A stretch of DNA of 64,000 nt from Rubrobacter sp. (GCA_035936475.1 DASYWA010000084.1:22930-86929); one strand, 5' to 3'. Counted from the stretch's first letter, positions 660 to 63,721 are shown. Numbers and translations are program-made. The notes: generated from the letters alone by a model not told the origin.

Positions 660-1963
660 AGGAGAGCAGGGAAGAAGGGGTAGGGACCGAAGTCGGGGCC
701 GAAGCGCGGGGCTTGCTCGTGGGCGCGGGAGAGCCGCGCCACATGGGGGAGTTGGGCCGCCTGGCGACGACGCTCGGGATGGAGGTCGTCGGCGTGCTCG
801 AGCAGGGCCGCAGGGACAACGCGGGCTACGTCGGCCGGGGCAAGCGCGAGGAGTTGCGCGAGCTCGTCGAAGAGACGGGCGCGGACTTCGTCGTGACGGA
901 CGACGAGCTTACGGCGTCCCAGGCCAGGGTGCTTGAGCGGGCGGCCGGCGCCGTCGTCGTCGACAGGACGGAGCTGATCATCCGCATCTTCGAGGTGCAC
1001 GCCGGGGACGCGGCGAGCAGCCTCGAGGTCGAGCTTGCGGACCTCCAGTACCGGCTGCCGAGGGTGAAGGGCCGCAACCCCGAGCTCAGCCGCCTGGGCG
1101 GCGGTCGCGGCGGCGCCGGGGGCGGCGCGAGGCGCGGCAGCGGCGAGCAGCAGCTCGAGTACGACCGCCGCGTCATCCGCGGGCGCATAGACACGATAAA
1201 CCGCAAGCTCGAGCGCGAGAAGACCGGCAGGGAGGTGCGCGGCGCGCGCCTGAGGGAAAGTTCCACCCCGACCGTGGCCCTCGTCGGCTACACCAACGCC
1301 GGCAAGACGACCATCCTCAACGCCCTGAGCGGCGCCGGGAGGTCCACGAAGGACAGGCTCTTCGAGACGCTCGAGACCACCACGCGCCTCGTCGAAGGCG
1401 GCGCCACCGCCAATGGCGCCGTTGGCGGTGGCGCCCACCCGGATTTCGTGGTCACCGACACGGTGGGCTTCATAAGGAAGCTGCCGACCCAGCTCGTCCA
1501 CTCCTTCGCCTCGACCCTCGAGGCTGCCAACCAAGCGGACGTCAGGGTCCTCTGCGCCGACGCCTCGAGCCCCGAGCTCGAAGACGAGATAGCCACCGTC
1601 AGTCGCACGCTCGCCGACGGCACCGGGGACGGATCGGGTGGACCGCCAACGATACTCTGCCTCAACAAGATGGACCTCGTCTCAGAAGAACGGGCCAAGG
1701 AGATAGAGAGGCTCTACCCGGAGGCCGTCCGGATCAGCGCCCTCACGGACGCCGGCCCGCTCCTCGAAGCCATCTACGGTGCGATCTCCTCTGGCCGGGA
1801 GCGGATGGAGGTCCTGATACCCCACGAGGACTACGGTGCAGCCAGCCGCCTCTACGGCCTCGCCGACATCCACGCCCGCCGCGCGACGGACGAGGGCCTC
1901 TGGATGGACGTCAGCCTCCCGCGCGCCGCCGCTGCCAGGTACGCCGCCTACAAAACCCCCTGA
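656..1963 (+). CDS. hflX: GTPase HflX
   Basis: GYTNAGKT, DTVGFIRKLP, NKMD motifs; LEVELA coiled segment; ATG 656 overlaps miaA TGA. Confidence 0.95.
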   Translation: MKESREEGVGTEVGAEARGLLVGAGEPRHMGELGRLATTLGMEVVGVLEQGRRDNAGYVGRGKREELRELVEETGADFVVTDDELTASQARVLERAAGAVVVDRTELIIRIFEVHAGDAASSLEVELADLQYRLPRVKGRNPELSRLGGGRGGAGGGARRGSGEQQLEYDRRVIRGRIDTINRKLEREKTGREVRGARLRESSTPTVALVGYTNAGKTTILNALSGAGRSTKDRLFETLETTTRLVEGGATANGAVGGGAHPDFVVTDTVGFIRKLPTQLVHSFASTLEAANQADVRVLCADASSPELEDEIATVSRTLADGTGDGSGGPPTILCLNKMDLVSEERAKEIERLYPEAVRISALTDAGPLLEAIYGAISSGRERMEVLIPHEDYGAASRLYGLADIHARRATDEGLWMDVSLPRAAAARYAAYKTP

Positions 1964-1995
1964 ACCCACCTTTTATCACCACATAATACATCATC

Positions 1996-2787
1996 GTGGA
2001 CAAGGATACCCGGACAACTAAACTCCGCCTCTACCCGGAGCACCGCGCGCTGGCAGGTGAGGAGGGGATATACGGGGATCTTGAATTCCCGCCCCCCGAT
2101 TCCCACAAGCTCCCTTACGTGCTGATGAACATGGTCAGTTCTGTGGACGGGAGACCATCCGTCGGGGGAAGGGCCGCGGGCATAGGAAGCCGGACCGACA
2201 GAGAGGCGATGCGGGCGCTCAGGTCTCGCGTGGACGCCGTCATGGTCGGAGCCGGGACCCTGCGCGCAGAGAAGCTCAACCTCGGTCTCGACGATCCCGG
2301 CGACGAACAACCCCTCGCCGTGGTGGTCGCGGGCGCCGGGGGCTTGCCGATAAGAGAACGGCTCGTGGTCGGGCGTCAGCGCGTGATCGTCGCCGCGCCA
2401 GAAGGTTCGCGGCGCATCGCGGAGGAAGGCCACGAGGCAGGCGAAGTCTCCGTGAGGGTTATAGAAACCCCGGGCTCCGGTGGCGGCCGCGCGGACCTGA
2501 GGTGGCTCCTCGGAGTACTCAAGTCCGAATACGGCGTAGATCGCCTGCTGGTGGAAGGCGGCCCGACGCTCAACCGCTCCCTGATAGACGAGGGCTTGGT
2601 TCACGAGCTCTTCCTCACGATCGCCCCGAAGCTGCTCTTGGGCCCGGAGGCCTCCATCCTCTCCGCCGGCCAAAACAACGAACCATGTGGCAGCGGGCCA
2701 CGCGACTTGACGCTCATCGCTGCGCACTCCGCGGCAGATGAGATCTTCCTCAGGTATCGCTTCCAGCAACCTGGGCGCCGCCCCTGA
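1996..2787 (+). CDS. RibD C-terminal domain / pyrimidine reductase (DHFR-fold) family protein
   Basis: MVSSVDG, DAVMVGAGT, LLVEGGPTLN, ELFLTIAP motifs; CATAAT 8 nt upstream of GTG. Confidence 0.8.
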   Translation: MDKDTRTTKLRLYPEHRALAGEEGIYGDLEFPPPDSHKLPYVLMNMVSSVDGRPSVGGRAAGIGSRTDREAMRALRSRVDAVMVGAGTLRAEKLNLGLDDPGDEQPLAVVVAGAGGLPIRERLVVGRQRVIVAAPEGSRRIAEEGHEAGEVSVRVIETPGSGGGRADLRWLLGVLKSEYGVDRLLVEGGPTLNRSLIDEGLVHELFLTIAPKLLLGPEASILSAGQNNEPCGSGPRDLTLIAAHSAADEIFLRYRFQQPGRRP

Positions 2788-2801
2788 ACCCCCAACGCTC
2801 A

Positions 2802-2829
2802 ACTTCCGAGAATTCCCGTTATGCGAAGT
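2802..2829. other. dif-like recombination site (11-6-11 imperfect palindrome)
   Basis: ACTTCCGAGAA-TTCCCG-TTATGCGAAGT; left arm differs at 1 of 11 positions from B. subtilis dif arm ACTTCCTAGAA; right arm starts TTATG like XerD arms; arms complementary at 8/11. Confidence 0.55.
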
Positions 2830-2889
2830 TCGCATGGGTGAGGGAGGTTCGGCCGCCTCCAAGCTAAGGGAGCAACGTCACTCGTTTGG

Positions 2890-3096
2890 CTATCGCATAC
2901 CCTTTGGGCCACTGCTTCGGCCGCTGCCCAAGAAGTACACGTCTGCCCAAAACGTGGCGCCCATGGAACTAACAAGGTCGACCTGTTCTCTGGAGAGGGA
3001 CAAATTGTAGTCGTTCTCCGAATCGGCGTAGATCACGCACGCGAAGGTGACGAGGTGCTCATCAGCCAGCGCCCTTACCTTTTCGACGTATGGCAT
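2890..3096 (-). pseudogene. Small low-GC ORF, probably a 5'-truncated DUF4279-like protein
   Basis: C-terminal pattern NLSLSREQVDLVSSMGATFWADVY resembles DUF4279 C-termini (recognition only); frame is open upstream only to a TGA at ~3130. Confidence 0.4.
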
Positions 3097-3247
3097 TAGC
3101 CGTTCGATCTCGACCAGCGATTCGTTTTCTCAAGAACCGGTGAGTTGCGGAAGAAACGCCTATACCCTCCCTTTCTCTAGATTTTGTCCGCCTCTAAGCC
3201 TGTTTGAGAGTTGATCTGCTCAGGATCTGCCATAGTTGTGCAGGCTC

Positions 3248-4192
3248 CTATATCGGGAGGGTATTATACTGATATGCCTTGCTGGCCAGTTCCTCGGCGC
3301 GGCGGATGTAGCGCAGGGTGGTCTTGGGATCGGAGTGGCCGAGGAATTGCTGGATGACGAGGAGGGGCGCCTCGTTCACGGCCATGTTGGTGCCTACGGT
3401 GTGGCGGATGGAGTGCGGGCTTATGGGCTTGGTTATGCCGGCGGCGCGGACGTACTTTTTTACTATGTTCTGGACGGAGCGGGTCGTGAGGGGCTTGTCC
3501 TTGCCCACACGGGAGGTCAGGAGGGGCTTGCGGGCGTCCGTGTGGGAGTTGAGGGAGCGGCCTGAGAGGAGGACGTAGCGCTGGACGAGGCGCCAGAGGT
3601 CCGGTGAGATCGGGACGTTGCGGATCTTGTCTCCCTTGCCGAGCACGCGGAGCATGACCGCGTCGTTGCCGGTGTCCTTAAAATCGGAGAGCTTGAGCCC
3701 GACAACCTCGGCCTCGCGCAGGCCGCACCCGGCCATGACCGCGAGCAGGACGTAGTCGCGGTAGTTGTCCGAGCGGGCGGCGTTGAGCATGCGCTGGAGC
3801 TCGTCCTCGGTGAGCACGTTGTAGGCCGGGTCCTGGCGCACGCGCGGGCTCTTGGCGAAGAAGCGCAGGGCCTCCGGGTTGACGGTCGTCGCACCCGTCA
3901 TAAACGTGAAGATCAAAAACCTTCGGAGCACCGCGAGCTTCTTGGCCGCCGTCGCCGCAGCGTAGCTGCTTATCAGGTGCTCCCGGTACAGGGACACATC
4001 CTCCGCTGTCAACCCCGACAGGTCTTTCCCAAGCTCCCCCACCAGGTAGGCGACGAAGAGCCGGATCTCTGTATTATAGGTTTTTATAGTCTGGGGGCTG
4101 GTTAGGGTGCGGAGGTAGAGGGCGATTAGGCGGTCGGTCTCCGGGGAGGTCTTTGCGGGGAGGGCGGGGGCCGGGACCGGGAGGTCAGTCAT
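3248..4192 (-). CDS. Tyrosine recombinase (Xer/integrase family) with intact catalytic residues
   Basis: GLREAE (R), GKGDK (K), HSIRH (H-x-x-R), LGH, TTLRY (Y); N-terminal SAM-like domain; start overlaps apt stop (ATGACTGA). Confidence 0.93.
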   Translation of the reverse strand: MTDLPVPAPALPAKTSPETDRLIALYLRTLTSPQTIKTYNTEIRLFVAYLVGELGKDLSGLTAEDVSLYREHLISSYAAATAAKKLAVLRRFLIFTFMTGATTVNPEALRFFAKSPRVRQDPAYNVLTEDELQRMLNAARSDNYRDYVLLAVMAGCGLREAEVVGLKLSDFKDTGNDAVMLRVLGKGDKIRNVPISPDLWRLVQRYVLLSGRSLNSHTDARKPLLTSRVGKDKPLTTRSVQNIVKKYVRAAGITKPISPHSIRHTVGTNMAVNEAPLLVIQQFLGHSDPKTTLRYIRRAEELASKAYQYNTLPI

Positions 4193-4736
4193 CGGGGGTG
4201 GCGTAGGTTATCAGCGAGACGACCTCGTAGGGGGCGAGGCGGGAGCGGCCGTCTAGGTAGCCGAGCTCTATGAGGAAGGCGACGCCCGCGACCGTTCCGC
4301 CGGCGTTCTCGACGAGGTCGCACATGGCGCGGGCGGTGCCGCCGGTGGCGAGGAGGTCGTCGGCGACGAGGACGCGCGACCCCTCGCGGATGGAATCGGC
4401 GTGGGCCTCCAGGGTGTCGGTGCCGTACTCGAGGTCGTAGGTGGCGGAGATCGTCTTTCGGGGGAGCTTGTTCGGTTTGCGGGCGAGGACGAGACCCTTT
4501 TTTGCCCTGTAGGCCAGCGCGGTACCGAAGACGAAGCCGCGGGCCTCGGCCGAGAGGATGTGGTCGTAGCCGAGGTGCTCGGTGGCGGCGTGGAGGGCGT
4601 CCGTGGCGGCGTGGAGGGCGGGTCCGTCCTCTATTACGGGGGTTATGTCTTTGTAGGAGATGCCGGGTTTGGGGAAGTCTGGGACGGTGCGGATGCGGGA
4701 CCTGACCGTCTTCAGGGCGTCCTCGGGAGCGGGCAT
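4185..4736 (-). CDS. apt: Adenine phosphoribosyltransferase
   Basis: VPDFPKPGI.YKDITP, EARGF, LEYGTD, DDLLATGGT. Confidence 0.97.
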   Translation of the reverse strand: MPAPEDALKTVRSRIRTVPDFPKPGISYKDITPVIEDGPALHAATDALHAATEHLGYDHILSAEARGFVFGTALAYRAKKGLVLARKPNKLPRKTISATYDLEYGTDTLEAHADSIREGSRVLVADDLLATGGTARAMCDLVENAGGTVAGVAFLIELGYLDGRSRLAPYEVVSLITYATPDD

Positions 4737-4738
4737 CC

Positions 4739-5593
4739 TCAGGGGGCGAAGGAGTCTATCACGTTCGCCATCATCAGCTCCTTCATCCGGGAGTCGACGG
4801 AGGCGAGGTGGCGGGCCTTGTTCACGGCCTCCGCGACCCTTCCCTCGTCGCCGCTGCGCAGCTCGGGGTTTACCACCTGCTTAAAGAGGGCGGCCTCGCG
4901 GTCCACGGCGGCCATGATGCCGCGCAGGTGGCGGGGTTGGATCGAGTACTTCGCCATCTCGAGGGCCATGCGCGCGATCTCGGCGTCTCGCTGGGTGAGC
5001 TCGCCGGTGCGCCCGATCACGCCGACCGTCACGAGCTCGTCGACGAAGCGGCTGTCCGTCTCCAAAGTGTCGGCGAGCTCCTCGCGGGTGTAGGTCCTGT
5101 CCTCCAGCACGCGGGAGAGGTCGTTCGCCGAGTCGCCGCCGGTGGAGATACCGCCGCCGCCCTCGATGCGCTTCTTGATCACCTTGAGCGGCAGGTACTC
5201 TTTGTCCTGGAGGGTGAGGATGTACTTTAGGAGCTCGATGTCCTGGCCCGAGAAGAGCCGGTAGCCGCCGCGGGTGCGAGTCAGGTTGATCAGGCGCCGG
5301 CGCTCGAGGTACCGGATCTTGCTGACGGACAGCGTCGGGAACTCGGGCCTCAGACGCTCCACGACCTCGCCTATGGTGTAGCTGTCCTTGGACCCTCCCC
5401 TCCCCCGCATCCCCTGGCCCGACTCGGGGGCCGGTTCGGGGATCGGTTCGTGGGCCGCCAGGCCCCCCGTCGCCTCGTCTTCGGGGGGCACGTTGTCCCC
5501 CCGCGCGGGGATCGGGGCGTCCCCCATGGGATCGTTCCACCTTCTCTGGTTTACGTCTCCGCTCTCCATGGGGTTCGCTCCCATCCTCTCCAT
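4739..5593 (-). CDS. MerR-family transcriptional regulator (FtsR-like)
   Basis: YTIGEVV...VSKIRYLE...RTRGGYRLFS HTH; downstream of GarA-like FHA gene, as in the actinobacterial garA-ftsR cluster. Confidence 0.85.
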   Translation of the reverse strand: MERMGANPMESGDVNQRRWNDPMGDAPIPARGDNVPPEDEATGGLAAHEPIPEPAPESGQGMRGRGGSKDSYTIGEVVERLRPEFPTLSVSKIRYLERRRLINLTRTRGGYRLFSGQDIELLKYILTLQDKEYLPLKVIKKRIEGGGGISTGGDSANDLSRVLEDRTYTREELADTLETDSRFVDELVTVGVIGRTGELTQRDAEIARMALEMAKYSIQPRHLRGIMAAVDREAALFKQVVNPELRSGDEGRVAEAVNKARHLASVDSRMKELMMANVIDSFAP

Positions 5594-5641
5594 CGCGCTC
5601 GGTGCCGCGCACGCCGCCCCCGGGTCTTCCCGAGGCCCTCT

Positions 5642-6097
5642 TTAGGCGAGCACGAACCTGAACCGGTACTTTCCTACCTGTATCTCGTCCCCGTTGCGCA
5701 GGTCCACGGAGTCCACCCTTACCCTGTTGACGTAGGTGCCGTTGAGGCTGCCCACGTCCCGGATCAGGAACCCCCGCTCCCCGCGCAGGATCTCGGCGTG
5801 CTTGCGGGAAACGGTTACGTCGTCCAGGAAGATGCTGCTCTCCTGGCCGCGGCCGACGGTGACGACCTCATCGTCTATGTCGTGCATGCGCCGACCGGCC
5901 GTGCCCTCGACCTGATCCAGCTCGATCAGGGAGGCGACCCCCGTCTCCACGGCGGCGAGCGCGTGCCCCTCCGCCTCCTCGCCGAAGCTCGGCGCGAAGG
6001 AGACCGTGCTCTGGCCGGCGTCGAGCTTCATGCCGCACTCGGCGCAGAACCTCATCTTGGGCGAGATCTCGGCCGCGCAGTTCGGGCAGACCATCAC
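5642..6097 (-). CDS. Zinc-ribbon + FHA domain protein (GarA/OdhI-like)
   Basis: CPNC..CAEC; GR..ESSIFLDDVTVSRKHA; GSLNGTYVN; QVGKYRF. Confidence 0.9.
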   Translation of the reverse strand: MMVCPNCAAEISPKMRFCAECGMKLDAGQSTVSFAPSFGEEAEGHALAAVETGVASLIELDQVEGTAGRRMHDIDDEVVTVGRGQESSIFLDDVTVSRKHAEILRGERGFLIRDVGSLNGTYVNRVRVDSVDLRNGDEIQVGKYRFRFVLA

Positions 6098-6348
6098 CTC
6101 GCCCCCTCCTCCCCGACCAACACCCGCGCGAGCTCCTCGGCCGTCAAGGCGGCCAGGCCCCGCCCGGCGAGCTCTGCCCGGATCAGGTTCGCCCTGCCCC
6201 GCAGGAGCTCGTGCCGGTACGCCGCCAACCGCTCCTCCTCGTAGACGCGCGCCAGAAGCCCCCGGAGCTCGGGCTCGGGGAGGGCAGTGAGGTCATCGGC
6301 AGACTCCCAATCGAAGCCGCCGGACGGCGTTAGGCGCTGGTCAGACAC
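6094..6348 (-). CDS. rsiG: Single-domain RsiG-like (anti-sigma-WhiG) coiled-coil protein with degenerate c-di-GMP motif
   Basis: DLTALPEPELRGLL..EEER..YR..LL.GR..LIRAEL pattern of the RsiG family; TATACT 7 nt upstream of GTG. Confidence 0.7.
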   Translation of the reverse strand: MSDQRLTPSGGFDWESADDLTALPEPELRGLLARVYEEERLAAYRHELLRGRANLIRAELAGRGLAALTAEELARVLVGEEGAR

Positions 6349-11668: not shown

Positions 11669-13009
11669 TCATCTGAGCCCTTCGAGCACCCGGAAGTACC
11701 CCGGGAAGGTCTTGGTCACGCAGCCGGGGTCGCTTACCGTGACCGTCGGCGCGGGTGCCGCCAGCCCCGCCACGGCGAAGGCCATCGCCATCCTGTGGTC
11801 CCCGTAGGTCTCGACCACGGCGGGCCGCAGCGGGCCGGGCATGATGCGCAACCCGCCTTTTCCCTCCTCGACGGGCACCCCGAGGCGCGAGAGCTCCGTG
11901 GCGACGGCCGAGATGCGGTCCGTCTCCTGGTGGCGGGTGTGGCCGACGTTGGTGATGGTGGTCGGCGAGGAGGCGAAGGGCGCTATGGCGGCGAGGGTCA
12001 TCATGGTGTCCGAGAAGGCGCCCATGTCCGCCTCCACCCCCCGCAGACGTTCGGGCCCCCGCACCTCCACGTAATCTTCGCCGAGGTCTACCGCGCACCC
12101 CATCCGCTCCAGCACCTCCGCGAAGCGCAGGTCCCCCTGGGAAGAGCCGTCACCGAGGCCCGGTATCCGCGCGCGCCCCCCGGTGACGGCGGCCAGCGCC
12201 AGGAAGTACGAGGCGGCGGACGCGTCGGGCTCGACCTCGAACCGGCGGGCCCGGTACGGGCCGCGAGCCACGGCGAGCCGTCCAAAGCCCCCGCCCGCCT
12301 CGACCTCGGCGCCGAAGCTGCGCATGACGTCCAACGTGATCCCGACGTAAGGCCAGCTCTCCCGCCCCTCGATATCCAGCGTGACGGCCCGCTCCGCGTA
12401 GGGCGCTGCCATGAGCAGGCCGCTAACGAACTGGCTGCTCCCGCCCCCGCGCACGACGGTTCGCCCTCCCCGCAACCCGCCGCCGCGCACGACGATGGGA
12501 AACCGGCCTTCCTCGCCGGCGTACTCCACCCCGGCCCCGAGCCCGCGCATCGCATCCACGAGATCCTTTATGGGCCGCTCCCGCATACGGGGCACCCCGT
12601 CCACGGTGTAAGGCCCGGGCCCGAGCGCCAGCGCGGGCGGCAAGAACCGCGCCACGGTCCCCGCGTTCCCGACAAAGACGCCCACGTCCCCGCGGGGTAT
12701 CCCGCCGCCAAGCCCCGCTATCCTCACCTCGCCGGCCTCCGAATTCGCCCGGACCTCGAAGCCCAGGCGCGCCAGGGACTCCATCAGGTAGTAAGGGTCG
12801 TCGGAGAAGAGCGGGTTCCGTATCGTGGAGACGCCGTCGGCGAGTGCGGCGACGAGCATCGCCCTGTTCGTCACGCTCTTGGAGCCGGGCACGACGACGT
12901 CGGCGTCTACGGGGCGACCGAGCGGGCCTATCTCCAGTCTCTCCGGGAACTCGCCCCTGACGTCCTCGAGATCGAAATCCCTGCCAGGAACGCCCCCCAC
13001 ACGGCTCAC
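11669..13009 (-). CDS. aroA: EPSP synthase
   Basis: PGSKSVTNR, GNAGTVARF, SSQFVSGLL, HQETDRI, DHRMAM; GTG 13009 overlaps rluB stop. Confidence 0.96.
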   Translation of the reverse strand: MSRVGGVPGRDFDLEDVRGEFPERLEIGPLGRPVDADVVVPGSKSVTNRAMLVAALADGVSTIRNPLFSDDPYYLMESLARLGFEVRANSEAGEVRIAGLGGGIPRGDVGVFVGNAGTVARFLPPALALGPGPYTVDGVPRMRERPIKDLVDAMRGLGAGVEYAGEEGRFPIVVRGGGLRGGRTVVRGGGSSQFVSGLLMAAPYAERAVTLDIEGRESWPYVGITLDVMRSFGAEVEAGGGFGRLAVARGPYRARRFEVEPDASAASYFLALAAVTGGRARIPGLGDGSSQGDLRFAEVLERMGCAVDLGEDYVEVRGPERLRGVEADMGAFSDTMMTLAAIAPFASSPTTITNVGHTRHQETDRISAVATELSRLGVPVEEGKGGLRIMPGPLRPAVVETYGDHRMAMAFAVAGLAAPAPTVTVSDPGCVTKTFPGYFRVLEGLR

Positions 13010-13707
13010 CGCAACGCCCCCAGCTCCTCCTCCGTGAGCGGACGATGTTCGCCCTCGGCGAGGTCCCCCAGAAGGATCGGGCCAACTCTCACTCTGCGCA
13101 GCCCGAGGAGTTCCAGGCCGGCGGCGGCACACGCCCGACGTATTATGCGGTTACGGCCCTCGTGGATGGTGAGGTGGAGGGTGGTCGTGCGCGGTAGTTT
13201 TTGGAGGTTCGAGATCTCCGGCGGGGACATGGGGCCGTCCTCGAGGATGGGGCCGGCGGCGAGGTCCTTTAGGGCGTCGGCGGGGACGGGGTTTTTCAGG
13301 GTGAGGAGGTACTCTTTTTCGACCTCTGAAGATGGGTGGGTGATGCGGTGGGCCAGGGGGCCGTCGTTCGTGAGGATCAGGAGCCCCGTCGTCTCGGCGT
13401 CGAGGCGGCCCGCGGGGACGAGGCCGGGGACGGGGGGCATCAGGTCGACGACCGTGGGGCGGTTTTTGTCCGGCTCGTCCTTGAGGGTGGTGAGGTAGCC
13501 GGCCGGTTTGTTCAGGGCGAACGAGGAGCGGACGGAAGGGAGGAAGACGGGGCGGCCATCGAGGAGTATCTCCTCGTCCCCGCGGACGGAGGCGCCGAGG
13601 GAGGCGGCCCCGCCGTCCACGAGGACGCGGCCGGCCTCGATCAGGGCCTCCGCCTTGCGCCTCGACGGGGCGGCGCCCGCGCGGGCGAGAAAGGCCTGCA
13701 ACCGCAC
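13006..13707 (-). CDS. rluB: rRNA pseudouridine synthase (RluB/RsuA family)
   Basis: S4 domain, NKPAG, GRLDAETTGLL, EGRNR. Confidence 0.9.
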   Translation of the reverse strand: MRLQAFLARAGAAPSRRKAEALIEAGRVLVDGGAASLGASVRGDEEILLDGRPVFLPSVRSSFALNKPAGYLTTLKDEPDKNRPTVVDLMPPVPGLVPAGRLDAETTGLLILTNDGPLAHRITHPSSEVEKEYLLTLKNPVPADALKDLAAGPILEDGPMSPPEISNLQKLPRTTTLHLTIHEGRNRIIRRACAAAGLELLGLRRVRVGPILLGDLAEGEHRPLTEEELGALR

Positions 13708-19600: not shown

Positions 19601-19710
19601 CACAGGAGTGGCCACGCACAACGGAACAGACCGACGGCCCTCCTCCGCGACCGCGAGAAGGCGCGGTCAGCAACGTTTTATGTATTATGAGTATAAATAA
19701 CGGTGCGGTG

Positions 19711-21375
19711 CTACCTGTGGGTGAGGAGTTCGGAGGCGTGGGCCAGGGAGGCGTCGTCGATGCGGCCGGAGAGCATGCGGGCCATCTCCTTGAGGCGCTC
19801 TTCGCCGGTCACGCGGGTAATGCGGGTTATGGTGCGTCCGGCGGACTCTTCTTTGGCGACGACGACGTGGGAGGCGGCTTCGGAGGCGATCTGGGGGAGG
19901 TGGGTGATAGTGAGGACCTGGTTGCGCATCCCGAGCTCTCGCAGCTTGGCGCCGACGGCCGTGGCGGTCTCGCCGCCGATGCCGGCGTCGACCTCGTCGA
20001 AGACGTAGGTGGCGCCCGGCTCGACCCGCTCCTGGGCGAGGCGGATGGCTAGCATTATGCGGGAGAGCTCGCCGCCCGAGGCGTAGCGCCTGACGGGGAG
20101 CTCCGGCTCTCCGGGGTTGGGCCGGATCTCGAACTCCACCCGCTCCCTGCCCGTCGGCCCCGCCTCCGCCGGCACGAGCCTCGCCCGGAACTCCGTCCGC
20201 CCGAGGTTCAGGCCCGAGAGGTTCTCCTGCACCTTCGCGGCCAGGCGCTTGGCGGCCTTCTCCCGGCCGGCCGAGAGCGTCCCGGCGAGCTCGCCGAGGC
20301 GCCGCTCACCTTCCGCAACGCGCGCCTCTAGTTCCGCCGCCTCCTCGTCGAGGTTCTCCAGGCGCGAGAGGCGGGCGCGGGCCTCTTCCAGGTAGCCCTC
20401 CACGTCCCCGTACTTGCGCTCGAGGGCGCGCAGGGCAGCGATGCGGTCCTCCACGACCTCCAGGCGGCCCGGGTCCGCTTCGAGCTCCTCCACGTAGGAG
20501 CGGAGCTCGTAGAGCACGTCCTCGAGCTCCGCCGTGAGGCCGCCGAGGCGCTCCAGCAGCCCCGAGAGGCCGGCGTCGAAGCGGAGGGCGGTCTCGAGCT
20601 CGCCGGTCGCGCGGGCGACCGAGTCGACCGCGCCGCCGCCCTCCTCCGAGGAGAGAAAGGTGGCCGCGGCGGCGGCCGCCTGCTGGAGGTCGGTGACGTT
20701 GCGAAGGCGGTCGCGCTCGCGGGCGAGCTCGTCCGCCTCTTGCGTGCTGTACCCGGCCGCTTCGAGCTCCGAGACCTGGAAGCGCAGGAAGTCCGCCTCG
20801 CGCAGGCGGGCCTCCCCCGTGGCGCGGACCTCGGCGAGCTCCCGGCGGGCCGCCTCGACGGAGCGCCAGAGCTCCTCGTGGTCCCGGCGGGCCTTCGTGG
20901 CCGCGCCGGTCAGGAAGTCGTCCAGGATGGCGAGCTGCTCTGCGGGTTCGGTGAGACGGGCCTGCTCCCGCTGGCTGTGGTAGGAGACGAGGCGATCGCC
21001 CAAAGTGCCCAGGGCGCGCACCGGCACCGAGACCCCGCCCACAAAGCACCGGGACCTGCCTTCGCCCGTCAGCGTCCGGCGGAGAATCAGGCCGTCGTCC
21101 GCGTCCACCTCCTCGGCCAGGTCGCCCAAAGCCTCGGCGAGGAGGTCTTGGCCCGTCTCTTCCGGGAGGATAAAGGTTCCCTCGATCGTTGCCTTCTCGG
21201 CGCCGGCGCGGACGGCCTCGGAGCGGGCGCGGCCCCCGAGGAGGAGTTGGAGGGCGGTGGCGAGCAGCGTCTTGCCGGCGCCCGTCTCGCCGGTAATCGC
21301 ATTAAGGCCGGGGGAGAGCTCCAGGGTGGCCTCTTCGATAAGGGCCACGTTTTGGACCGAGATCTCCGTCAGCAT
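19711..21375 (-). CDS. recN: DNA repair protein RecN
   Basis: TGETGAGKT, ASGGELSRIMLA, FDEVDAGIGG, ITHLPQIA. Confidence 0.97.
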   Translation of the reverse strand: MLTEISVQNVALIEEATLELSPGLNAITGETGAGKTLLATALQLLLGGRARSEAVRAGAEKATIEGTFILPEETGQDLLAEALGDLAEEVDADDGLILRRTLTGEGRSRCFVGGVSVPVRALGTLGDRLVSYHSQREQARLTEPAEQLAILDDFLTGAATKARRDHEELWRSVEAARRELAEVRATGEARLREADFLRFQVSELEAAGYSTQEADELARERDRLRNVTDLQQAAAAAATFLSSEEGGGAVDSVARATGELETALRFDAGLSGLLERLGGLTAELEDVLYELRSYVEELEADPGRLEVVEDRIAALRALERKYGDVEGYLEEARARLSRLENLDEEAAELEARVAEGERRLGELAGTLSAGREKAAKRLAAKVQENLSGLNLGRTEFRARLVPAEAGPTGRERVEFEIRPNPGEPELPVRRYASGGELSRIMLAIRLAQERVEPGATYVFDEVDAGIGGETATAVGAKLRELGMRNQVLTITHLPQIASEAASHVVVAKEESAGRTITRITRVTGEERLKEMARMLSGRIDDASLAHASELLTHR

Positions 21376-22184
21376 TACAGGAACGTCCGCCTGACGGCCC
21401 GCCACCAGCTCCACTCGTCGGTGCGCCCGATCCTTACGCTGTTAGGGGAGAGCCGGAGCTCGATCTTCCCCCCCTCCCCCACCTCGCGCGGGTCGTCCCC
21501 GTCGAGCGAGAGCAGCGCCTCCCTTCCTACCACCTGGAGCTCGACTACCTGCTCCGCCCCGAGCACGAGCGGCCGGCTGACGAGCGCGTGCGGCGCGATG
21601 GGCACCAGCACGAAACACCCGGCGTCGCCCGAGATGATCGGGCCCCCCGCCGACAGCGCGTAGGCGGTCGAGCCGAGCGGCGTGGCCGCTATGAAGCCGT
21701 CGCACCGGAAGGCGAAGAGCTCCTCCCCCCCTATGGTCACGTCCACGGAGACGAGCTGGTGGGGCCGCTTCTTGATGAGCACGGCGTCGTTGGCCGCGAG
21801 CTCGGGCTCCTCGCCGGGGCGGCGCACCTCCAGCATCCGGTACTCCTGGACGGAGAGGCCGCCACCCAAGACTTTCTCGACGCCGGCCTCCATCTCGTCG
21901 GGGAGCATCCCGGACATGAAGCCGACCTTGCCGAGGTTCACGCCGAGCAGGACGCGCCCGGGGTACATCCTGGCCGCCTTGAGCATCGTCCCGTCGCCGC
22001 CTAGCACGAAGACGAGGTCGGGCTCGACGGCGCCGTCGGGCTCGCCCTGGGGCCTCACGTCTGCGACCTCGACGCCGCCCTGCTCCAGCGCGGCCACCAG
22101 CCGCTCGGAGTGCCCGTCGTCAACCGTAGGGTTCGCGACTACCGCAACGCGCCGCAGCTCGCCGATGTCGCCCTTCTCAGGCAC
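21375..22184 (-). CDS. nadK: NAD kinase
   Basis: LGGDGT, GKVGF, ATPLGSTAYALSAGGP. Confidence 0.95.
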   Translation of the reverse strand: MPEKGDIGELRRVAVVANPTVDDGHSERLVAALEQGGVEVADVRPQGEPDGAVEPDLVFVLGGDGTMLKAARMYPGRVLLGVNLGKVGFMSGMLPDEMEAGVEKVLGGGLSVQEYRMLEVRRPGEEPELAANDAVLIKKRPHQLVSVDVTIGGEELFAFRCDGFIAATPLGSTAYALSAGGPIISGDAGCFVLVPIAPHALVSRPLVLGAEQVVELQVVGREALLSLDGDDPREVGEGGKIELRLSPNSVRIGRTDEWSWWRAVRRTFL

Positions 22185-32401: not shown

Positions 32402-33322
32402 CTACCTCCCGAAGGCCCCCGTTAGCCGTCGGCCGAGCAGGAAATCCCGCGCCGACACGCGCCTACCCCCCGGGGCCTGCAACTCCAGCACCTCGAGAGC
32501 CCCCACCCCGCATCGTACGCATATACGCCCATCCGCGGCCGAAATGGCGCCGGGAGGACCGCCCGATGCGGCCTCGTCCACGACCCTCGTGCACCAGATC
32601 TTGACCGGGCCGTCGAAACCGGCGTGGAAGGTGCGCGCCCCGATCCCGGGCGCCAACGCCCGGACGAGATCGTGCACACCCCTAACCTTATCCTCCCACC
32701 AGATAACCTTATCCTCATCCAGAAGTTTAGATGCATATGTTGCATTAAGACTGTCCTGCTCGGAGACGGTTAGCCTTCCTCCCTCGAGCAGACTGAGAGC
32801 CTCTACTATAGCGTTAGATCCGATCCGGGCGAGGAGCTCGGTCAGTTCGCCGCCGGTCGTGTCGGGCGTTATGGCCGTGGGTCTCTGGAGGGCGATGGGG
32901 CCGGTGTCGAGTCCCTCGTCCATCCGCATGATGGTGACGCCCGTCTCCCTCTCGCCCTCCATGATGGCGCGTTCTACGGGGGCGGCGCCGCGGTATTTGG
33001 GGAGAAGGGAGGCGTGGACGTTCCAGGCGCCGTGGGGTGCGGCGTAGAGGGAGTCGGGGCGCAGGATCTGGCCGAAGGCTGCGACCACGAGGGCGTCGTT
33101 AGCGGCGATCCTGGGCGCCAGCTCGCCTATGCGGGTCGGTTGGGCGAGGGGCACGCCTTCGGAGCGGGCGAGGGCGGAGACCGGGGTCGGGGTGGTCTTG
33201 CGGCCCCGTCCTCGGCGGCGGTCGGGCTGGGAGATCACCAGCCCGACCTCGTGGTCGGAGGCGAGGAGGCCGCGGAGGATCGTCGCGGCGAACTCGGGGG
33301 TCCCGGCGAACGCTACCCTCAA
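32402..33322 (-). CDS. fmt: Methionyl-tRNA formyltransferase
   Basis: FAGTPEFA, NVHASLLPKYRGAAP, GVTIM.MD.GLDTG. Confidence 0.97.
   Translation of the reverse strand: MRVAFAGTPEFAATILRGLLASDHEVGLVISQPDRRRGRGRKTTPTPVSALARSEGVPLAQPTRIGELAPRIAANDALVVAAFGQILRPDSLYAAPHGAWNVHASLLPKYRGAAPVERAIMEGERETGVTIMRMDEGLDTGPIALQRPTAITPDTTGGELTELLARIGSNAIVEALSLLEGGRLTVSEQDSLNATYASKLLDEDKVIWWEDKVRGVHDLVRALAPGIGARTFHAGFDGPVKIWCTRVVDEAASGGPPGAISAADGRICVRCGVGALEVLELQAPGGRRVSARDFLLGRRLTGAFGR

Positions 33323-45400: not shown

Positions 45401-45404
<4 letters not shown>
44670..45404 (-). CDS. pyrK: Dihydroorotate dehydrogenase electron transfer subunit
   Basis: [29 protein letters not shown]. Confidence 0.92.
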
Positions 45405-48565
<3,161 letters not shown>

Positions 48566-58258: not shown

Positions 58259-59335
58259 CTACCTGCGCCGCAAGAAGGCCGGGATGTCCAGGACGTCGCC
58301 CTCCTGCGACGGAGCGACCGGCTCCTCTTCGCGCTGCTGCTGAGGCGGCTCGGCGACCGAGCGCTCCGAGCGGCGCTGGTTCGCCAGGCGCTGGTCGAAG
58401 CCCGTCGCTATGACCGTGACGCTCACCCGGTCGCCGTAGGCGTCGTCTATAACGGCGCCGAAGATCAGGTTCGCGTCCTGGTGGGCGGCGTTGTGCACGA
58501 TCTCGGCCGCCTCGTTCACCTCGAAGAGGCCGAGCTCGGGCCCGCCGGTGATGTTCAATATGATCCCGGTAGCCCCCTCGATGCTCGCCTCCAGCAGCGG
58601 GCTCGAGATCGCCGTCTTCGCCGCCTCAGAACCCCTGGACTCGCTGGTCGACTCCCCGATGCCCATGAGCGCGGACCCGGAGTTGTGCATGATCGTGCGC
58701 ACGTCCGCGAAGTCGAGGTTGATGAGGCCTGGCACCGTGATGAGGTCCGTGATGCCCTGGACGCCCTTCCTCAGGATGTCGTCCGCCATCTTGAAGGCGT
58801 CCATCATGCTGGTCCGCTTCTCGGCGACCTGCAAGAGGCGGTCGTTCGGGATGATGATCAGGGAATCGACGTTCTCCTTGAGGCGCTTGATGCCTTCTTC
58901 GGCGTAAGTCGAACGCCGCCGACCCTCGAACGCGAACGGGCGCGTAACGACGCCCACGGTGAGCGCACCGGAGTCGCGGGCGATCTTGGCGACCACGGGT
59001 GCAGCCCCCGTCCCGGTCCCGCCGCCCTTGCCGGCGGTGACGAAGACCATGTCCGCGCCGCGCAGGGCCTCCTCGATCTCGGCCTTGTTCTCCTCGGCGG
59101 CCTCCATACCTATCTTCGGGTCGGCGCCGGCCCCGAGGCCGCGCGTGATCTTCTCTCCTATGTGGATCTTCTGGTCCGCGTCGCACATCTGCAAGGCCTG
59201 CGCGTCGGTGTTGACCGCGATGAACTCGACCCCCTGCAACCCCGAGTTGATCATGCGGTTGACGGCGTTGGTCCCGCCCCCGCCAATGCCCACGACCTTG
59301 ATGACCGCCAGATAGTTCGTCGCCGCGTCCAACAT
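58259..59335 (-). CDS. ftsZ: Cell division protein FtsZ
   Basis: [32 protein letters not shown]. Confidence 0.99.
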
Positions 59336-59379
59336 CCCTCGTCTACCCTCCATCACGCGCTTTCCGGTGGCTCTTCCGT

Positions 59380-60582
59380 CTACCCTCCCCGGAACCAGCC
59401 CTTGACCGCCGACACTATGCTACCAAAACTGGTAACTCCTGCACCTTTACTCTTCGGTCCAGGGTCACCGTTTCGAGCGGCGAAGTATAGCAGACCTACA
59501 GACGTCGAGTACTGAGGCTTTTGTACAGGTTTAACCTCGCCCTTTACCCGCCGGGGCGCGACCGACTGCACGCGCATGCCGAGGATGTCCTCGGCGAGCT
59601 CGGGCATACCGTCGAGGAGCGAGCCCCCCCCGGTAAGCGCGACGCCGCCGGGAAGGAGGTCGCGCATGCCCGCCGCGTCGAGGGTATCGCGGACGTACTC
59701 GAGGACCTCGCGGGCGCGGTACTCGAGGATCTGGCAGGCGAAGTTCGCGTTGTAGTGCCGGTCGTCGATCTTGACGGCGGCAACGGAGTCGACGGTCGTG
59801 GAGAGCACCGTCCCGTACCGGAGCTTGAGGAGCTCTGCCGTGCGCTCCGGCACCTTGAGCCCGTATGCGACGTCCGAGGTGAAGCTCTCGCCGCCTAGAG
59901 GAATCACCGCCGTGTGGGTCAGGGCTCCGCGAGAGAAGGTGGCGACGTCGGTCGTGCCGCCGCCTATGTCCACCAGCGCGATGCCGCCCTCGCGGTCGGC
60001 GTCGTGCAGGCAGGCCTCCGCGGAGGCGAGCGGTTCCAGAACGACGCGCGAGACGCTCACGCCGCAGTCCTCCACGGCGTGGAGCAGGTTCTGGATGCTG
60101 GAGACCGCCCCGCTGACGACGTGCGCCCGCATGGTCACCTTGCGGGCGGCGAGGCCCAGCGGGTTCTTGACGCCCTCCGATCCGTCGAGGACGTAGCCGC
60201 GGGGGACGACGTGGATCACTCTCCCGTCCTCGTGCAAATCTAGCTGGCGGGCCTCCTGTTCGAGCTTCTTCAGGAAGCGCTCGTTCACGGTAAGGTTGCG
60301 GCTGCGGTTGAGGAGGGTGACCTCGGTGTTGAACGAGGAGATGTGGCTGCCGGCGATGCCCACGCTGACCTTACCGCCGCGGACCCCGCAGGCGTCCATC
60401 GCCTCGGCGACCGACTCCGCCGCGGCCTGACGGTCCACCACGACGCCCCGCTTGAGCCCGTAGCTCGGCGCCTCCCCGATGGAGAGCACCTCCGCCCACC
60501 CGCGCCGCGCGTCAACCCGGCCGGCTACGGCCACGATCTTCGTGGTACCCACGTCTATGCCGTACACGAGGGAAGGCGCCAT
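59380..60582 (-). CDS. ftsA: Cell division protein FtsA
   Basis: [29 protein letters not shown]; C-terminal amphipathic helix ..KGWF. Confidence 0.94.
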
Positions 60583-61257
60583 CTAGAGACTTCCCGTCCC
60601 GTCGCCCACGTCGCCGTCGGCGGTCACCACCACCCGGCCGGGGGAGCGAAGATCGAAGACCGCCGACCCGCGCGAGCGCCCCATCACGTCCCCGAGCGCC
60701 CGGACCTGCGCCTCCGAGACCTCCTCGGCAAAGACCACCCGGCGCCCCTCGACGGTCGCAGCAATTCCCCCCGGACCGGCGTCGTCCACCGACTCCATCA
60801 GCAGGCCGCCCTCTTCCAAGATCCTCCCGACCCTCAAGACGTCTCCTACCTGGTCCTCGTCCAACTCCACCCTCCGGAGGCTCGCCCCCCCGAGCCCCGG
60901 GAGCGACACGCCGTCCAGCGCAAGGGTCCTGCGCTCTCCCTCGACCTCAGCGTCGAGCACCGTCCTGCGCTCCTCAACCTTAACCGTAACTATACCGGAC
61001 TCGGTATCTTCGAGCACCTCCGCACCCTCGACCCAAGGGTTAGACTCTACGTGGTGCTCCAGCTTCTCCTCGTTGAGGGTGAGCAGGCTGGCGTGCTGGG
61101 AGACGGCATCCCAGGCGTCGGATTCGGGGTACACGGTGGCGCCTTCGACCCGGATCCCGGTCACGGGGGAGCTCAGGTAGGCGACGACCACGACGGCGCC
61201 GGTCGTCACGACGGCGACGAGTAGGGAGAAGAGGATGGCGCGCAGGTGGGAGGTCAC
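60583..61257 (-). CDS. ftsQ: FtsQ/DivIB-like protein
   Basis: Single TM, POTRA-like I.V.G, V.VEER; between murC and ftsA. Confidence 0.8.
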   Translation of the reverse strand: MTSHLRAILFSLLVAVVTTGAVVVVAYLSSPVTGIRVEGATVYPESDAWDAVSQHASLLTLNEEKLEHHVESNPWVEGAEVLEDTESGIVTVKVEERRTVLDAEVEGERRTLALDGVSLPGLGGASLRRVELDEDQVGDVLRVGRILEEGGLLMESVDDAGPGGIAATVEGRRVVFAEEVSEAQVRALGDVMGRSRGSAVFDLRSPGRVVVTADGDVGDGTGSL

Positions 61258-61262
61258 GGTCT

Positions 61263-62618
61263 CTATCTCGGGGCCTCCAGAAGATCTAGCAGGTCGTCTC
61301 CCACGCCGGAGATGTCCCCGGCGCCTAAAGTGAGCACGAGGTCGCCGGGCTCGGAGACCTCGCGCAGGACGCGGGGGATGGCGCCCTGCTGCGGCAGGTA
61401 GAAGACCTCGGGGTGCCCGGGGGTCTCGCAGATGGCGTCAACTATAAGCTTCCCGTTCACGCCGGGCTGGGGCATCTCGCCAGCCCCGTAGACCTCGGTT
61501 ATGACGACGGCGTCGGCCGCGCCGAAGGAGTCGCCGAACTCCTTGTAGAGGGCGCGGGTTCGCGAGTAACGGTGGGGCTGGAAGACCGCGATCACGCGCC
61601 CCCCCTCGCCCACGGTCGAGCGGGCCGCGTCGAGCGTGGCGGAGAGTTCGGTCGGATGGTGGGCGTAGTCGTCCACCACGCGGACCTGCGCCTTCTCCCC
61701 CTTGAGCTGGAACCTCCGTCGCACGCCGCCGAAGGTCCGCAGGGTCAGGGCCGCCTCGTACGCGTCGTGGCCGAGCCAGCGGGCCGTCGCGACGGCGCCC
61801 AGCGAGTTGAGCACGTTGTGCCGCCCGTAGACCCCGAGCTCGACCTCCCCCCGCTCCTCTCCGTTCTCGATGAGCCTGTAGCTGTTCGGTCCGGTCACCT
61901 CGGCCCGCAGGTCCCCCTCCGAGATGCCGTAGGTGGTGACGGGGCACGGCGCCTCAGCCGCGAGCCGCAGGCACACGGGGTCGTCGGCGCAGGCGACGAG
62001 GTGGCCGTCGGGGGGCAGGGCGCCGAGGAACTTTCCGAAGGTCTCGACCACGTCGTCCAGCGAGTCGTAGAAGTCCGGGTGGTCGAACTCGACGTTCGTG
62101 ACGATGGCGACCTGCGGGCGGAGGTAGAGAAAGGAGCGGTCGCTCTCGTCGGCCTCAGCCACGACGAGGTCCTGGCGTCCGAAGGCGACGTTGCTGCCGA
62201 TGTCGTTGAGCTCGCCGCCCACGAGCGCCGTCGGGTTCTCGCCGAGCGACCTCAGGACGTGGGCCGTCATGCTCGTCGTGGTCGTCTTGCCGTGGGTTCC
62301 GGCGACGGCCACGCTGCGGCTGCCCTCGAGGATGGACGCGAGGGCGGCGGCGCGGGGCAGGACCGGGATCGAGCGCCGCCGGGCCTCGAGGAGCTCGGGG
62401 TTCGTCTTCGGGATGGCCGTCGAGATCACGACCTGCTCGGCGTCCCCCACCTGCCCCGTGTCGTGCCCGATATAAACCGTTATGCCGGCCTCTCTGAGCC
62501 TCCTGGTGTAGGCCGACTCTTTTAGGTCCGAGCCGGAGACCTCGTGCCCCCGGCTCTTGAGGACCTCCGCGATGCCGCTCATCCCCGCGCCGCCGATGCC
62601 TATCATGTGGACCTTCAC
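61263..62618 (-). CDS. murC: UDP-N-acetylmuramate-L-alanine ligase
   Basis: IGIGGAGMSG, GTHGKTTT, EADESD, DDYAHHPTE, FQPHRYSRT. Confidence 0.97.
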   Translation of the reverse strand: MKVHMIGIGGAGMSGIAEVLKSRGHEVSGSDLKESAYTRRLREAGITVYIGHDTGQVGDAEQVVISTAIPKTNPELLEARRRSIPVLPRAAALASILEGSRSVAVAGTHGKTTTTSMTAHVLRSLGENPTALVGGELNDIGSNVAFGRQDLVVAEADESDRSFLYLRPQVAIVTNVEFDHPDFYDSLDDVVETFGKFLGALPPDGHLVACADDPVCLRLAAEAPCPVTTYGISEGDLRAEVTGPNSYRLIENGEERGEVELGVYGRHNVLNSLGAVATARWLGHDAYEAALTLRTFGGVRRRFQLKGEKAQVRVVDDYAHHPTELSATLDAARSTVGEGGRVIAVFQPHRYSRTRALYKEFGDSFGAADAVVITEVYGAGEMPQPGVNGKLIVDAICETPGHPEVFYLPQQGAIPRVLREVSEPGDLVLTLGAGDISGVGDDLLDLLEAPR

Positions 62619-63721
62619 CGCCTTGACTCCTCTCCCGCCGCGCGCATCAACCGCCGGGCGACGACGTCCGCCGCCCCGGGCGTCGCGAGCGCCGCCATCC
62701 CGCGGGCCAGCGCCCCGCGCCTGTCTTGGTCGTCGAGCAAGTCCTCGACCCGCCGCTTGAGCGAGCCCGCCGTTACCTCGGCGTCCATCATCAACTCCGC
62801 CGCCCCCCTCTCGGTGAAGTAGCGGGCGTTGTGCAGCTGATGGTCGCCCGTCGCGAAGGGGAAGGGGACGAGCACGGCGGCCCTGCCGACCGCCGCTATG
62901 TCGAAGAGCGACCCGGCGCCGGCCCGGCTGACGACCAGGTCGGCCGCCGCCAGGTACCGCCAGATGTCGTCGACGTACTCCAGGATCACGTGCCGCGGGT
63001 TCTCCGTCGAGAGCCGTCCGAAGTCCCGGCGCCCCGCTACCTGCACCACCGTGTAAGGCGTGCCGCCGCGAAAGGCCTCGACCGCGGCGAGGTTGAGCTT
63101 GAACGCCCCGCCGCTCCCGCCGAAGATAAGGACCACCGGCGGCTCCAACCCGAGGCCCCGCAGGGCCTCCTCCCGCGAAGCCCCGAAGAACTCCGCCCGC
63201 GTCGGCATCCCGACCGTCTCCGCCCCCTGCAGATAGTCGGCCGCGCGCGGGAAGGTCACCAGCGTCTCGTGCGAGATCCTGCCCGCCGCCCGGTTCACCC
63301 GCCCCGGCACGCTGTTCTGCTCGTGCAGCAGCGTCGGCACCCCGAGCGTCCGCGCCGCCACCACCGCCGGCGCGCTCGCGTACCCCCCCACCCCCAGAAC
63401 CGCCCCAGGCCCGAACCGATGTATTATGCGTCTACAGGCGTGGATGGCTTTGAGGAAAAGGGCGGCGGCGCGGGCACGGGCGAGGGGGTTGCCGGCGAAG
63501 GACGTGAGGTTCAGGGGGTGGAGCGGGAAGTTGGCGTTGGGTACGAGGGTCGCCTCGATGCCGGAGCGGGAGCCTACGAAGTGCACGGTTGCGCCCATGG
63601 AACGCAAGCTAGAGGCCACGCACAGCGCGGGGATCGCGTGCCCGCCCGTCCCGCCCCCGGCTATCAGAACGCGCGGGGGTTCGGCGGTTGCGGCGGGGTT
63701 TGATCTCTCTCGCTCTCTCAC
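62615..63721 (-). CDS. murG: MurG glycosyltransferase
   Basis: AGGGTGGH, GGYAS, HEQN..PG..N, GGSGGA, RAGA, HQ..NA. Confidence 0.96.
   Translation of the reverse strand: MRERERSNPAATAEPPRVLIAGGGTGGHAIPALCVASSLRSMGATVHFVGSRSGIEATLVPNANFPLHPLNLTSFAGNPLARARAAALFLKAIHACRRIIHRFGPGAVLGVGGYASAPAVVAARTLGVPTLLHEQNSVPGRVNRAAGRISHETLVTFPRAADYLQGAETVGMPTRAEFFGASREEALRGLGLEPPVVLIFGGSGGAFKLNLAAVEAFRGGTPYTVVQVAGRRDFGRLSTENPRHVILEYVDDIWRYLAAADLVVSRAGAGSLFDIAAVGRAAVLVPFPFATGDHQLHNARYFTERGAAELMMDAEVTAGSLKRRVEDLLDDQDRRGALARGMAALATPGAADVVARRLMRAAGEESRR

Follow-up and report, generated by a model that had tools for sequence, protein, structure and literature searches.

The stretch of Rubrobacter sp. DNA analysed here (64,000 nucleotides, positions 22930-86929 of contig C84 in the draft genome G000; the whole stretch is referred to simply as the window) contains the replication terminus and the dif site of the chromosome, and it carries seven copies of a short AT-rich word, (C/T)ATAATAC. 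We show that this word acts in cis as a DNA signal under selection in the chromosomes of the Rubrobacteraceae. It is restricted, with few exceptions, to the 60-110 kb flanking dif on each side, and its density rises toward dif; its copies always occupy the leading (gene-sense) strand and so point at dif; and they are kept at orthologous sites in different genera, within genes by means of the rare codons ATA-ATA. The word, also written YATAATAC, has the forms CATAATAC and TATAATAC, which share the 7-mer GTATTAT/ATAATAC. The host genome is a 3.16-Mb draft with 68% G+C and is 98% complete. Its relatives, which were found through the Xer gene, belong to Rubrobacter and the Rubrobacteraceae. Ten other genomes from five genera were compared: eight were placed against a match to the dif pattern, the dif of G039 was identified by its palindromic arms, and G001 was read for clustering only. 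Genomes flagged as unpublished carry no part of the argument.

The terminus was located from several features. When genes were called from the G+C content of third codon positions (GC3), all 21 genes to the left of window position ~1960 were on the + strand, and almost all genes to the right of ~3250 were on the - strand; dif stands at the exact point where the two gene orientations converge. The cumulative GC skew has its maximum at ~5 kb in the window, near dif, and in near-complete relatives dif was found about half-way round the chromosome (2.116 of 4.379 Mb in G036; 1.455 of 3.226 Mb in G040). Most genomes of the genus have this site with 97-100% identity, against ~70% in its flanks, and the arms of dif were found in other genera too. 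A strict CATAA-N6-TTATG pattern was also tried as a dif finder, and missed the real site. The protein encoded by the neighbouring xer gene has a Pfam Phage_integrase domain and a SAM-like domain; the XerC, XerD and XerA models all match it, each below its own cut-off, and this is the sole close Xer gene in the G000 genome. It may be noted that such a single-recombinase layout, with the gene as close to dif as given in Table 1, likens the system to XerS/difSL and XerH/difH, not to XerCD.

An earlier note on this DNA had listed seven positions of GTATTAT/ATAATAC, and all of them were confirmed, namely 1983 on the - strand and 3261, 4071, 13140, 19682, 47749 and 63421 on the + strand; dinucleotide-preserving shuffles of the window gave an expectation of 0.27. 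The 10-mer GTATTATGCG occurs three times, against 0.01 expected. As the note had described, its copies are all in frame, being read CGC-ATA-ATA-C in a pseudouridine synthase gene (rluB), carB and murG. The orientation of the motif, said to flip across ~2.8 kb, does so between 1983 and 3261, thereby bracketing dif. In the whole genome the 7-mer is found 28 times, which is ordinary for its composition (the median for 7-mers with one G or C is 23), and ten of these copies sit on the single 120-kb contig of the window. When all k-mers were compared between contig and genome, CATAATAC was the most contig-enriched of 32,749 8-mers (8 of its 14 copies; p=1e-8), and ATAATAC ranked second among the 7-mers. 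Orthology with G036 and G008 placed 13 of the 14 copies of CATAATAC in G000 close to the terminus; those on contigs C170, C191, C73, C3 and C17 fall 27-118 kb from dif.

Could chance and codon usage account for these counts, as the earlier note had allowed? In that case the word would merely reflect Ile-Ile pairs written ATA-ATA in co-oriented genes. ATA makes up 23% of the Ile codons of G000, ten times the share of ATT (2%), and the motif is cheaply coded on the sense strand only. However, within-gene synonymous shuffling of the genes of the contig gave 0.97 +/- 0.96 copies of YATAATAC against the 8 observed, a number reached in none of 1000 shuffles, and ATA codon usage is therefore ruled out as the cause of the count. 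The explanation is also contradicted by the near restriction of the word to the dif regions of complete genomes, by its retention in orthologues (87%, against 14% for controls; see below) and by the existence of intergenic members. We consider it refuted, with practically no chance of being right.

In the ten further genomes, (C/T)ATAATAC clusters within ~60-110 kb of dif and points at dif from both sides (Table 1). The same convergence was seen in G037, G047 and G089, located against the dif-pattern match, and likewise in G039 despite its different dif. In G036, 12 of the 15 chromosomal copies of CATAATAC are near dif and both copies of TATAATAC are inside xer. The three distant chromosomal copies of G036 are oriented according to their own replichore; they have neither the 5' extension nor the skew described below, are probably chance copies, and were rejected as members. 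A facing pair of sites on the second replicon of G036 was also rejected, there being no dif-like site between them. When six genomes were pooled, the density of sites per kb was 0.63 at less than 2 kb from dif, 0.29 at 2-6 kb, 0.13 at 6-20 kb, ~0.05 at 20-80 kb and 0.03 at 80-110 kb, against ~0.0007 elsewhere; it thus falls roughly as 1/distance.

Polarity was scored as the number of copies directed toward and away from dif in the ~900 kb around it in five genomes. The counts were 61:1 for CATAATAC and 12:0 for TATAATAC. The most strand-skewed 8-mers of this region were GCATAATA (46:0), CATAATAC and CGCATAAT (46:1), and canonical G-rich words were much less skewed (GGGNAGGG, 206:77; GAGAAGGG, 42:23). 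The intergenic sites all point to dif. The sole misoriented CATAATAC of the 62 near dif was found in G033 (C19, 37.2 kb to the left), in an AT-rich patch full of TATAC/GTATA repeats that is probably foreign or mobile DNA.

The 61 copies directed toward dif form ~25-28 orthologous families, of which ~17 are coding (mostly read xxC-ATA-ATA-Cxx, in a few cases YAT-AAT-ACx) and ~10 intergenic. The core is preferentially preceded by (A/C)CG and, before that, by an A/T-rich patch, the extended form being (A/C)CG-CATAATAC; in G039 the motif is CGCATAATAC. For each site we calculated D, the GC skew of the 120 nt to its right minus that of the 120 nt to its left. Among the 24 one-mismatch variants of the word, only TATAATAC combines polarity with skew, and it is also limited to the dif region; the others are unpolarised with D near 0, and were rejected as members.

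Table 1. The dif site, the xer gene, word sites and their host genes in the window, and distribution of the word around dif in six relatives (D, difference in GC skew across the site; distances are from dif).
Feature	Position	Strand or orientation	Remarks
dif, ACTTCCGAGAA-TTCCCG-TTATGCGAAGT (11-6-11)	2802..2829	+	point where all motif copies converge
Xer-type tyrosine recombinase gene (xer), single	3248..4192	-	415 bp from dif; holds two TATAATAC sites
CATAATAC site, left arm, intergenic	1982..1989	+	20 nt after hflX stop; 834 bp from dif, pointing to dif; D=0.20
TATAATAC site, last xer codons, frame TAT-AAT-ACC	3261..3268	-	+446 bp; D=0.25, up to 0.46 nearby
TATAATAC site, near xer 5' end, frame TAT-AAT-ACA	4071..4078	-	+1256 bp; D=0.66-0.75
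CATAATAC site, rluB-like pseudouridine synthase gene, AAC-CGC-ATA-ATA-CGT	13140..13147	-	+10.3 kb; D=0.51
CATAATAC site, intergenic	19682..19689	-	~23 nt 3' of recN stop; +16.9 kb; D=0.42-0.59
CATAATAC site in carB, TTA-CGC-ATA-ATA-CGA	47749..47756	-	+44.9 kb; D=0.56
CATAATAC site in murG, AGA-CGC-ATA-ATA-CAT	63421..63428	-	+60.6 kb; D=0.79-0.86
Pseudouridine synthase gene	13006-13707		host gene
carB	45401-48565		host gene
murG	62615-63721		host gene
dif of G036 (4.4-Mb contig C1)	2,115,600	6 on + left, 6 on - right, -73 to +118 kb	elsewhere: 3 on C1
dif of G008	C2: 114,870	7 left, 11 right, all convergent (18/22 genome copies)	4 on other contigs
dif of G033	C19: 252,645	15/16 on contig convergent	3 on other contigs
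dif of G034	C9: 220,036	10/10 convergent	4 on other contigs
dif of G032	C5: 42,460	9/9 convergent	9 on other contigs
dif of G040 (other genus, complete, 3.2 Mb)	1,454,879	13/13 CATAATAC and 3/3 TATAATAC, -51 to +92 kb, all toward dif	elsewhere none

Retention of the word was measured in alignments anchored on the sites of G000. At an overall identity of ~75%, the exact 8-mer was kept in 35 of 40 orthologous comparisons (87%), compared with 14% for same-phase 8-mers in the same alignments and 48% for other single ATA codons. Orthologues without the word read ATC-ATC or similar. The site in the pseudouridine synthase gene has an orthologous copy in all four other genomes of the genus that were compared, as well as in G039 and G040; at the carB site, TTTACGCATAATACG is identical in five genomes; and the site near the 5' end of xer is kept in the relatives examined, where it is among the strongest local skew switches (top or second in G036 and G008). 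An insertion of new DNA beside dif in G008 brings its own correctly oriented copies. One hypothesis of the earlier note, that of a polar chromosome-organising motif, is thus strongly supported: the word is confined to the surroundings of dif, is directed toward it on both arms, and is conserved family-wide.

The sites also mark a switch in strand composition, which is the most surprising part of the results and is predicted by no protein-binding model that we considered. In the orientation of the motif, the GC skew is -0.25 just upstream of the word, fading by about -400 (background +0.03), and +0.10 to +0.19 downstream, with a slow fade. Of the 28 families, 26 show a positive change (z = 9-12). 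An orientation-free scan of the 120-kb contig gave motif sites as its three strongest C-to-G switches. The earlier note had described such switches along the window without computing them. On computation they proved real at five sites (4074, 13144, 19686, 47753 and 63425, at the 98.6th to 100th percentile of D in the window, the murG site being the strongest of all), and weaker at 3264 (92nd percentile) and 1986 (87th). Two further loci that it had placed in the same class do not belong there, as they hold no YATAATAC: the switch at 61045 is moderately strong (98th percentile), and that at 32735 is unremarkable (86th).

The effect was seen at all three codon positions and was largest at the third. 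At four-fold degenerate sites, the ratio G3:C3 is 80:341 just upstream of the core and 240:113 just downstream, all eight four-fold amino acids switching from C-ending to G-ending codons across the core; similarly, an excess of A3 over T3 upstream turns into an excess of T3 over A3 downstream. The pattern has a two-fold symmetry over several hundred bp: whichever strand is read, A and C are in excess in the 5' arm, G and T in the 3' arm. A comparison of orthologous positions showed the switch only where the word is present: in one family D is 0.56-0.79 with the word, against -0.26 and 0.10 without it, and in a second family 0.29-0.39 against 0.01 and 0.10. The skew as a property of the encoded protein was rejected, as D is ~0.08 at orthologous positions lacking the word. 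A general promoter effect was likewise rejected, the mean D of 67 GTATAAT promoter-like sites being 0.08 compared with ~0.4 for sites of the word. D showed no correlation with distance from dif, and the flanks showed neither conservation nor hyper-divergence, their identity being ~75% at all distances from the site.

Folding of the flanks was also considered. A specific hairpin or cruciform across the core was rejected, since the minimum free energy of the +/-40 nt around it was no lower than that of arm-wise shuffles (mean z -0.33), and at +/-100 nt there was no excess of pairing between the arms (43% against 33% in random windows, p=0.2). Compared with random windows, the flanks have less self-structure (-71 vs -87 kcal/mol). 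In a separate observation on eight genomes, dif itself tended to coincide with a weak switch from C to G (mean GC skew -0.21 to the left and +0.08 to the right), which is the opposite of the chromosome-scale G-to-C change expected at a terminus.

Exposed single strands undergo cytosine deamination, and this is the standard basis for reading the sign of a skew. Read in this manner, the sign suggests that single strands are exposed in both directions away from the core, as happens at an origin or under divergent transcription with R-loops; a fork pausing there, a terminus, or a break at the core followed by resection would leave a different sign. It is possible, although we hold it to be doubtful, that the sites near dif are origin-like or R-loop-forming elements, at which the two strands come apart and, in the direction away from the core, are exposed or newly made. 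Alternatively, there may be selection for arms unable to fold on themselves. If the strand-opening reading is true, the activity of the sites would have altered synonymous codons for hundreds of bp in essential genes, and they would represent a terminus element with a local mutational or selective footprint of a kind not described in bacteria.

A particular form of divergent opening, which we regard as improbable, makes YATAATAC a symmetric -10 or unwinding element that starts untranslated divergent transcripts with R-loops, or short DNA synthesis. The flank asymmetry would be its mutational footprint, and its role near dif that of a barrier or of a restart or priming site. Bidirectional promoters have a symmetric -10 element, with TATAAT on one strand and TATTAT on the other (10.1101/2020.01.31.928960). 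Like the bidirectional promoters of Warman et al., the core TATAATA/CATAATA has -10-like hexamers on both strands, overlapping in the same register and with A2 and T6 on each (YATAAT on the top strand, TATTAT on the bottom), and its skew has the sign of divergent transcription. The -10 consensus of this genome appears to be G-TATAAT (67 of 139 TATAAT), and the bottom strand of the word reads G-TATTAT. The GC and AT skews at four-fold sites flip as expected for exposure of the non-template or lagging-template strand diverging from the core, the skew arises together with the motif, and the low self-structure of the flanks also agrees with this view. The earlier note had proposed a bidirectional promoter leaving a symmetric mutational skew, and it is only the -10 arrangement and the skew sign that bear it out. 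Genuine promoters of the same genome are without such a skew (D=0.08), and the sites have no conserved -35 or other promoter feature. Most of them are intragenic on the sense strand, and so they do not resemble the other promoters of the genome. They are not genome-wide but strictly oriented to dif, and divergent opening provides no reason for a dif-centred gradient or a strict polarity. Moreover, the GC3 skew, running from -0.62 to +0.36, is far beyond the transcriptional asymmetries known to us. Copies of G-TATAAT in the G000 genome were often seen 7-11 nt before a called start codon; because there are many such copies, frequent leaderless mRNAs are suggested in G000.

What, then, would read the word? 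Our favoured reading, which we put forward tentatively, is that it is a KOPS-like (FtsK orienting polar sequences), terminus-confined, AT-rich polar guide to dif, with FtsK as the candidate reader. The sites would be polar guide words for machinery that has to reach dif as the cell cycle ends. The FtsK translocase, acting through its gamma domain, would be the most likely reader; having loaded or oriented itself on the words, it would go on pumping DNA up to dif, where it meets Xer. The word being rare in DNA of 68% G+C, ~12-18 copies could make an almost noise-free funnel, a functional analogue of KOPS and of the SpoIIIE recognition sequences (SRS). In all genera examined, FtsK with a gamma domain is encoded ~10 kb from dif, and the winged-helix recognition segment GYSRAGRIIDALE is invariant in five genera. 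On alignment, the gamma domain reads GYSRAGRIID here and GYNRAAR(I/M)IE in E. coli and P. aeruginosa; the helix differences N to S and E to D hit the residues N and E, which we take to be KOPS contacts.

The likeness to known guide words is close in several respects. Like KOPS, SRS and the architecture imparting sequences (AIMS) (GGGNAGGG, GAGAAGGG and GAAGAAG), the word has 7-8 bp and lies on the leading strand, as do the words that orient FtsK or SpoIIIE, and it switches orientation exactly at dif. Nolivos et al. 2012 (PMC3384302) give criteria by which KOPS may be recognised. At least 90% of the copies should be directed toward dif, and this was found on both arms (61:1 and 12:0 as above, and 16:0 in G040); the frequency in the dif region should be at least 1 per 40 kb, and it was ~1 per 8-16 kb within +/-60-110 kb, rising toward dif. 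The geometry and gradient of the sites are closest to KOPS/AIMS guide words, and their number and confinement resemble Ter or XDS sites.

Several points, on the other hand, weigh against a guide read by FtsK. The criteria of Nolivos et al. also ask for a word that is highly over-represented and frequent in the genome as a whole. KOPS are so, whereas our word is not: the 95% of the chromosome beyond the dif region has hardly any copies (in G036 3 of the 15 chromosomal ones, in G040 none of 16, in G037 2 of the 14 of CATAATAC). Known KOPS and SRS words are G-rich and occur genome-wide at 1 per 12-22 kb (PMC3384302); the word described here is AT-rich, not G/A-rich, and is made of rare codons. 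Near dif nearly every gene runs in the direction of replication, and codon usage permits the word on the sense strand only, so the polarity of the coding sites would follow from coding alone; only the ~10 intergenic sites argue for an intrinsic polarity. The gamma domain resembles the Firmicute type, that of SpoIIIE, which reads a G-rich word. Lastly, the strand asymmetry of the flanks is nothing that one would expect from the loading of FtsK. A strand-composition flip over several hundred bp is not described for KOPS, and a translocase that reads G-rich words would be led astray, if affected at all, by the upstream arm, which is G-rich in the reverse sense.

The number and placement of the sites could also suit a replication fork trap, in which Ter-like polar sites, bound by a putative terminator protein, would let forks enter the dif region and not leave it. 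The trap of E. coli has 10 sites, and that of B. subtilis 9 sites in ~10% of the chromosome (PMC13220808). The geometry here is as in those two traps: like the Ter sites of Tus in E. coli and RTP in B. subtilis, the ~10 asymmetric AT-rich sites form two opposed groups (of ~6-10) that flank dif, they are limited to ~4-5% of the chromosome and absent elsewhere, and some are intragenic. Tus and RTP are of independent origin, so a third, unrelated protein is conceivable. Nevertheless, we think a fork trap unlikely. No homologue of Tus (PF05472) or RTP (PF02334) was found in the 98% complete genome, in a search that matched the E. coli and B. subtilis controls. The conserved core of 8-11 bp is much shorter than the 23-32 bp of Ter sites. 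A trap could do without sites as near to dif as 0.3-1.3 kb and without a density that rises so steeply toward it, as 1/distance; in this the present sites differ from Ter. By the reasoning of lagging-template exposure, the local skew is origin-like, that is, the opposite of the skew of a terminus or a paused fork.

Another candidate reader is the recombinase itself. The single Xer protein might bind dif-arm-like words as a monomer, and there unload or block SMC or organise the terminus domain. In B. subtilis, XDS are dif-like sequences in ter at which XerD unloads Smc-ScpAB (PMC11840125, PMC11894783). The present sites are terminus-restricted like XDS and matS, and in most genera the word resembles part of dif, as XDS do, through CGCATAA. 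This is the sharing of TTATGCG with a dif arm that had been pointed out in the earlier note. It holds in this genus, where CGCATAA is common to the word and the arm TTATGCGAAGT; in genus g6 dif arm and spacer read CGCATAA-GTACAA and the motif CGCATAA-TACAA. Two sites, moreover, lie inside the xer gene. The likeness is lost, however, in a sister genus that keeps the word. The dif of G039 (C1:559432-559459) is GTTTCCGAGAA-TTGTAC-TTATCGGAAAC; its two arms complement each other at 10 of 11 positions, and the motif of G039 is still CGCATAATAC. In genera g1 and g6 the word matches the organism's own dif arm over a contiguous run of 7 of the 11 positions, and in G039 only at ATAA and scattered positions. 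Motif and arm thus do not co-vary; since the dif of G039 differs, the dif arms have changed within the family and the polar word has stayed the same. At the outer four positions of the arm there is no match, and the skew is left unexplained. Taken together, Xer half-sites seem to us a quite unlikely explanation. We know of no strict polarity or flank asymmetry in XDS. The matS site is a palindromic 13-bp site, non-polar and bound by MatP; the core of our word is asymmetric and strictly oriented.

Some other features of the region and genome were recorded. Genes for chromosome maintenance and division crowd the neighbourhood of the terminus (C84:1-28000; window 19711-21414 and 62615-63721): truB, ftsK, a rodZ-like gene, recA, rny, a GHKL-ATPase gene (HATPase_c), miaB, hflX, xer, apt, ftsR, an OdhI/GarA-like gene, recN and murG. 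Dispersed 28-mers were found with outer arms as in dif (ACTTCCGAGAA...GCGAAGT) and a different inner part, at 5-25 copies per genome (in G000 at C57:1513, C102:22071 and C218:19389; many in G022, G003, G025, G004 and G034); these may be mobile-element ends or Xer-dependent module sites. The AT-rich 7-mers ATAAAGA (259 copies), AGATAAA, ACTTTAT and TCATAAA are far above the same-composition median of 23 in G000, so the genome may hold a family or an array of AT-rich repeats.

To our knowledge, polar unlinking guide words are known from a few Proteobacteria and Firmicutes, and none has been shown for the deep-branching Actinomycetota. The word described here may be the missing signal in Actinomycetota, and it is an exceptionally clean candidate, with one complete genome in which every copy is near dif and directed toward it. 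Its design, a rare word confined to the terminus as against a common word with biased orientation, bears on the evolution of such signals. The combination of a polar word with a flip from C-ending to G-ending codons is shown by no known chromosome signal. Because the codons of all eight four-fold amino acids change on crossing a core of 8 bp, a process at the level of DNA can dominate synonymous sites, and partly the choice of amino acids, in essential genes, carB and murG among them. Should the flip stem from strand exposure, it would offer a handle on the DNA events around dif at the end of replication.

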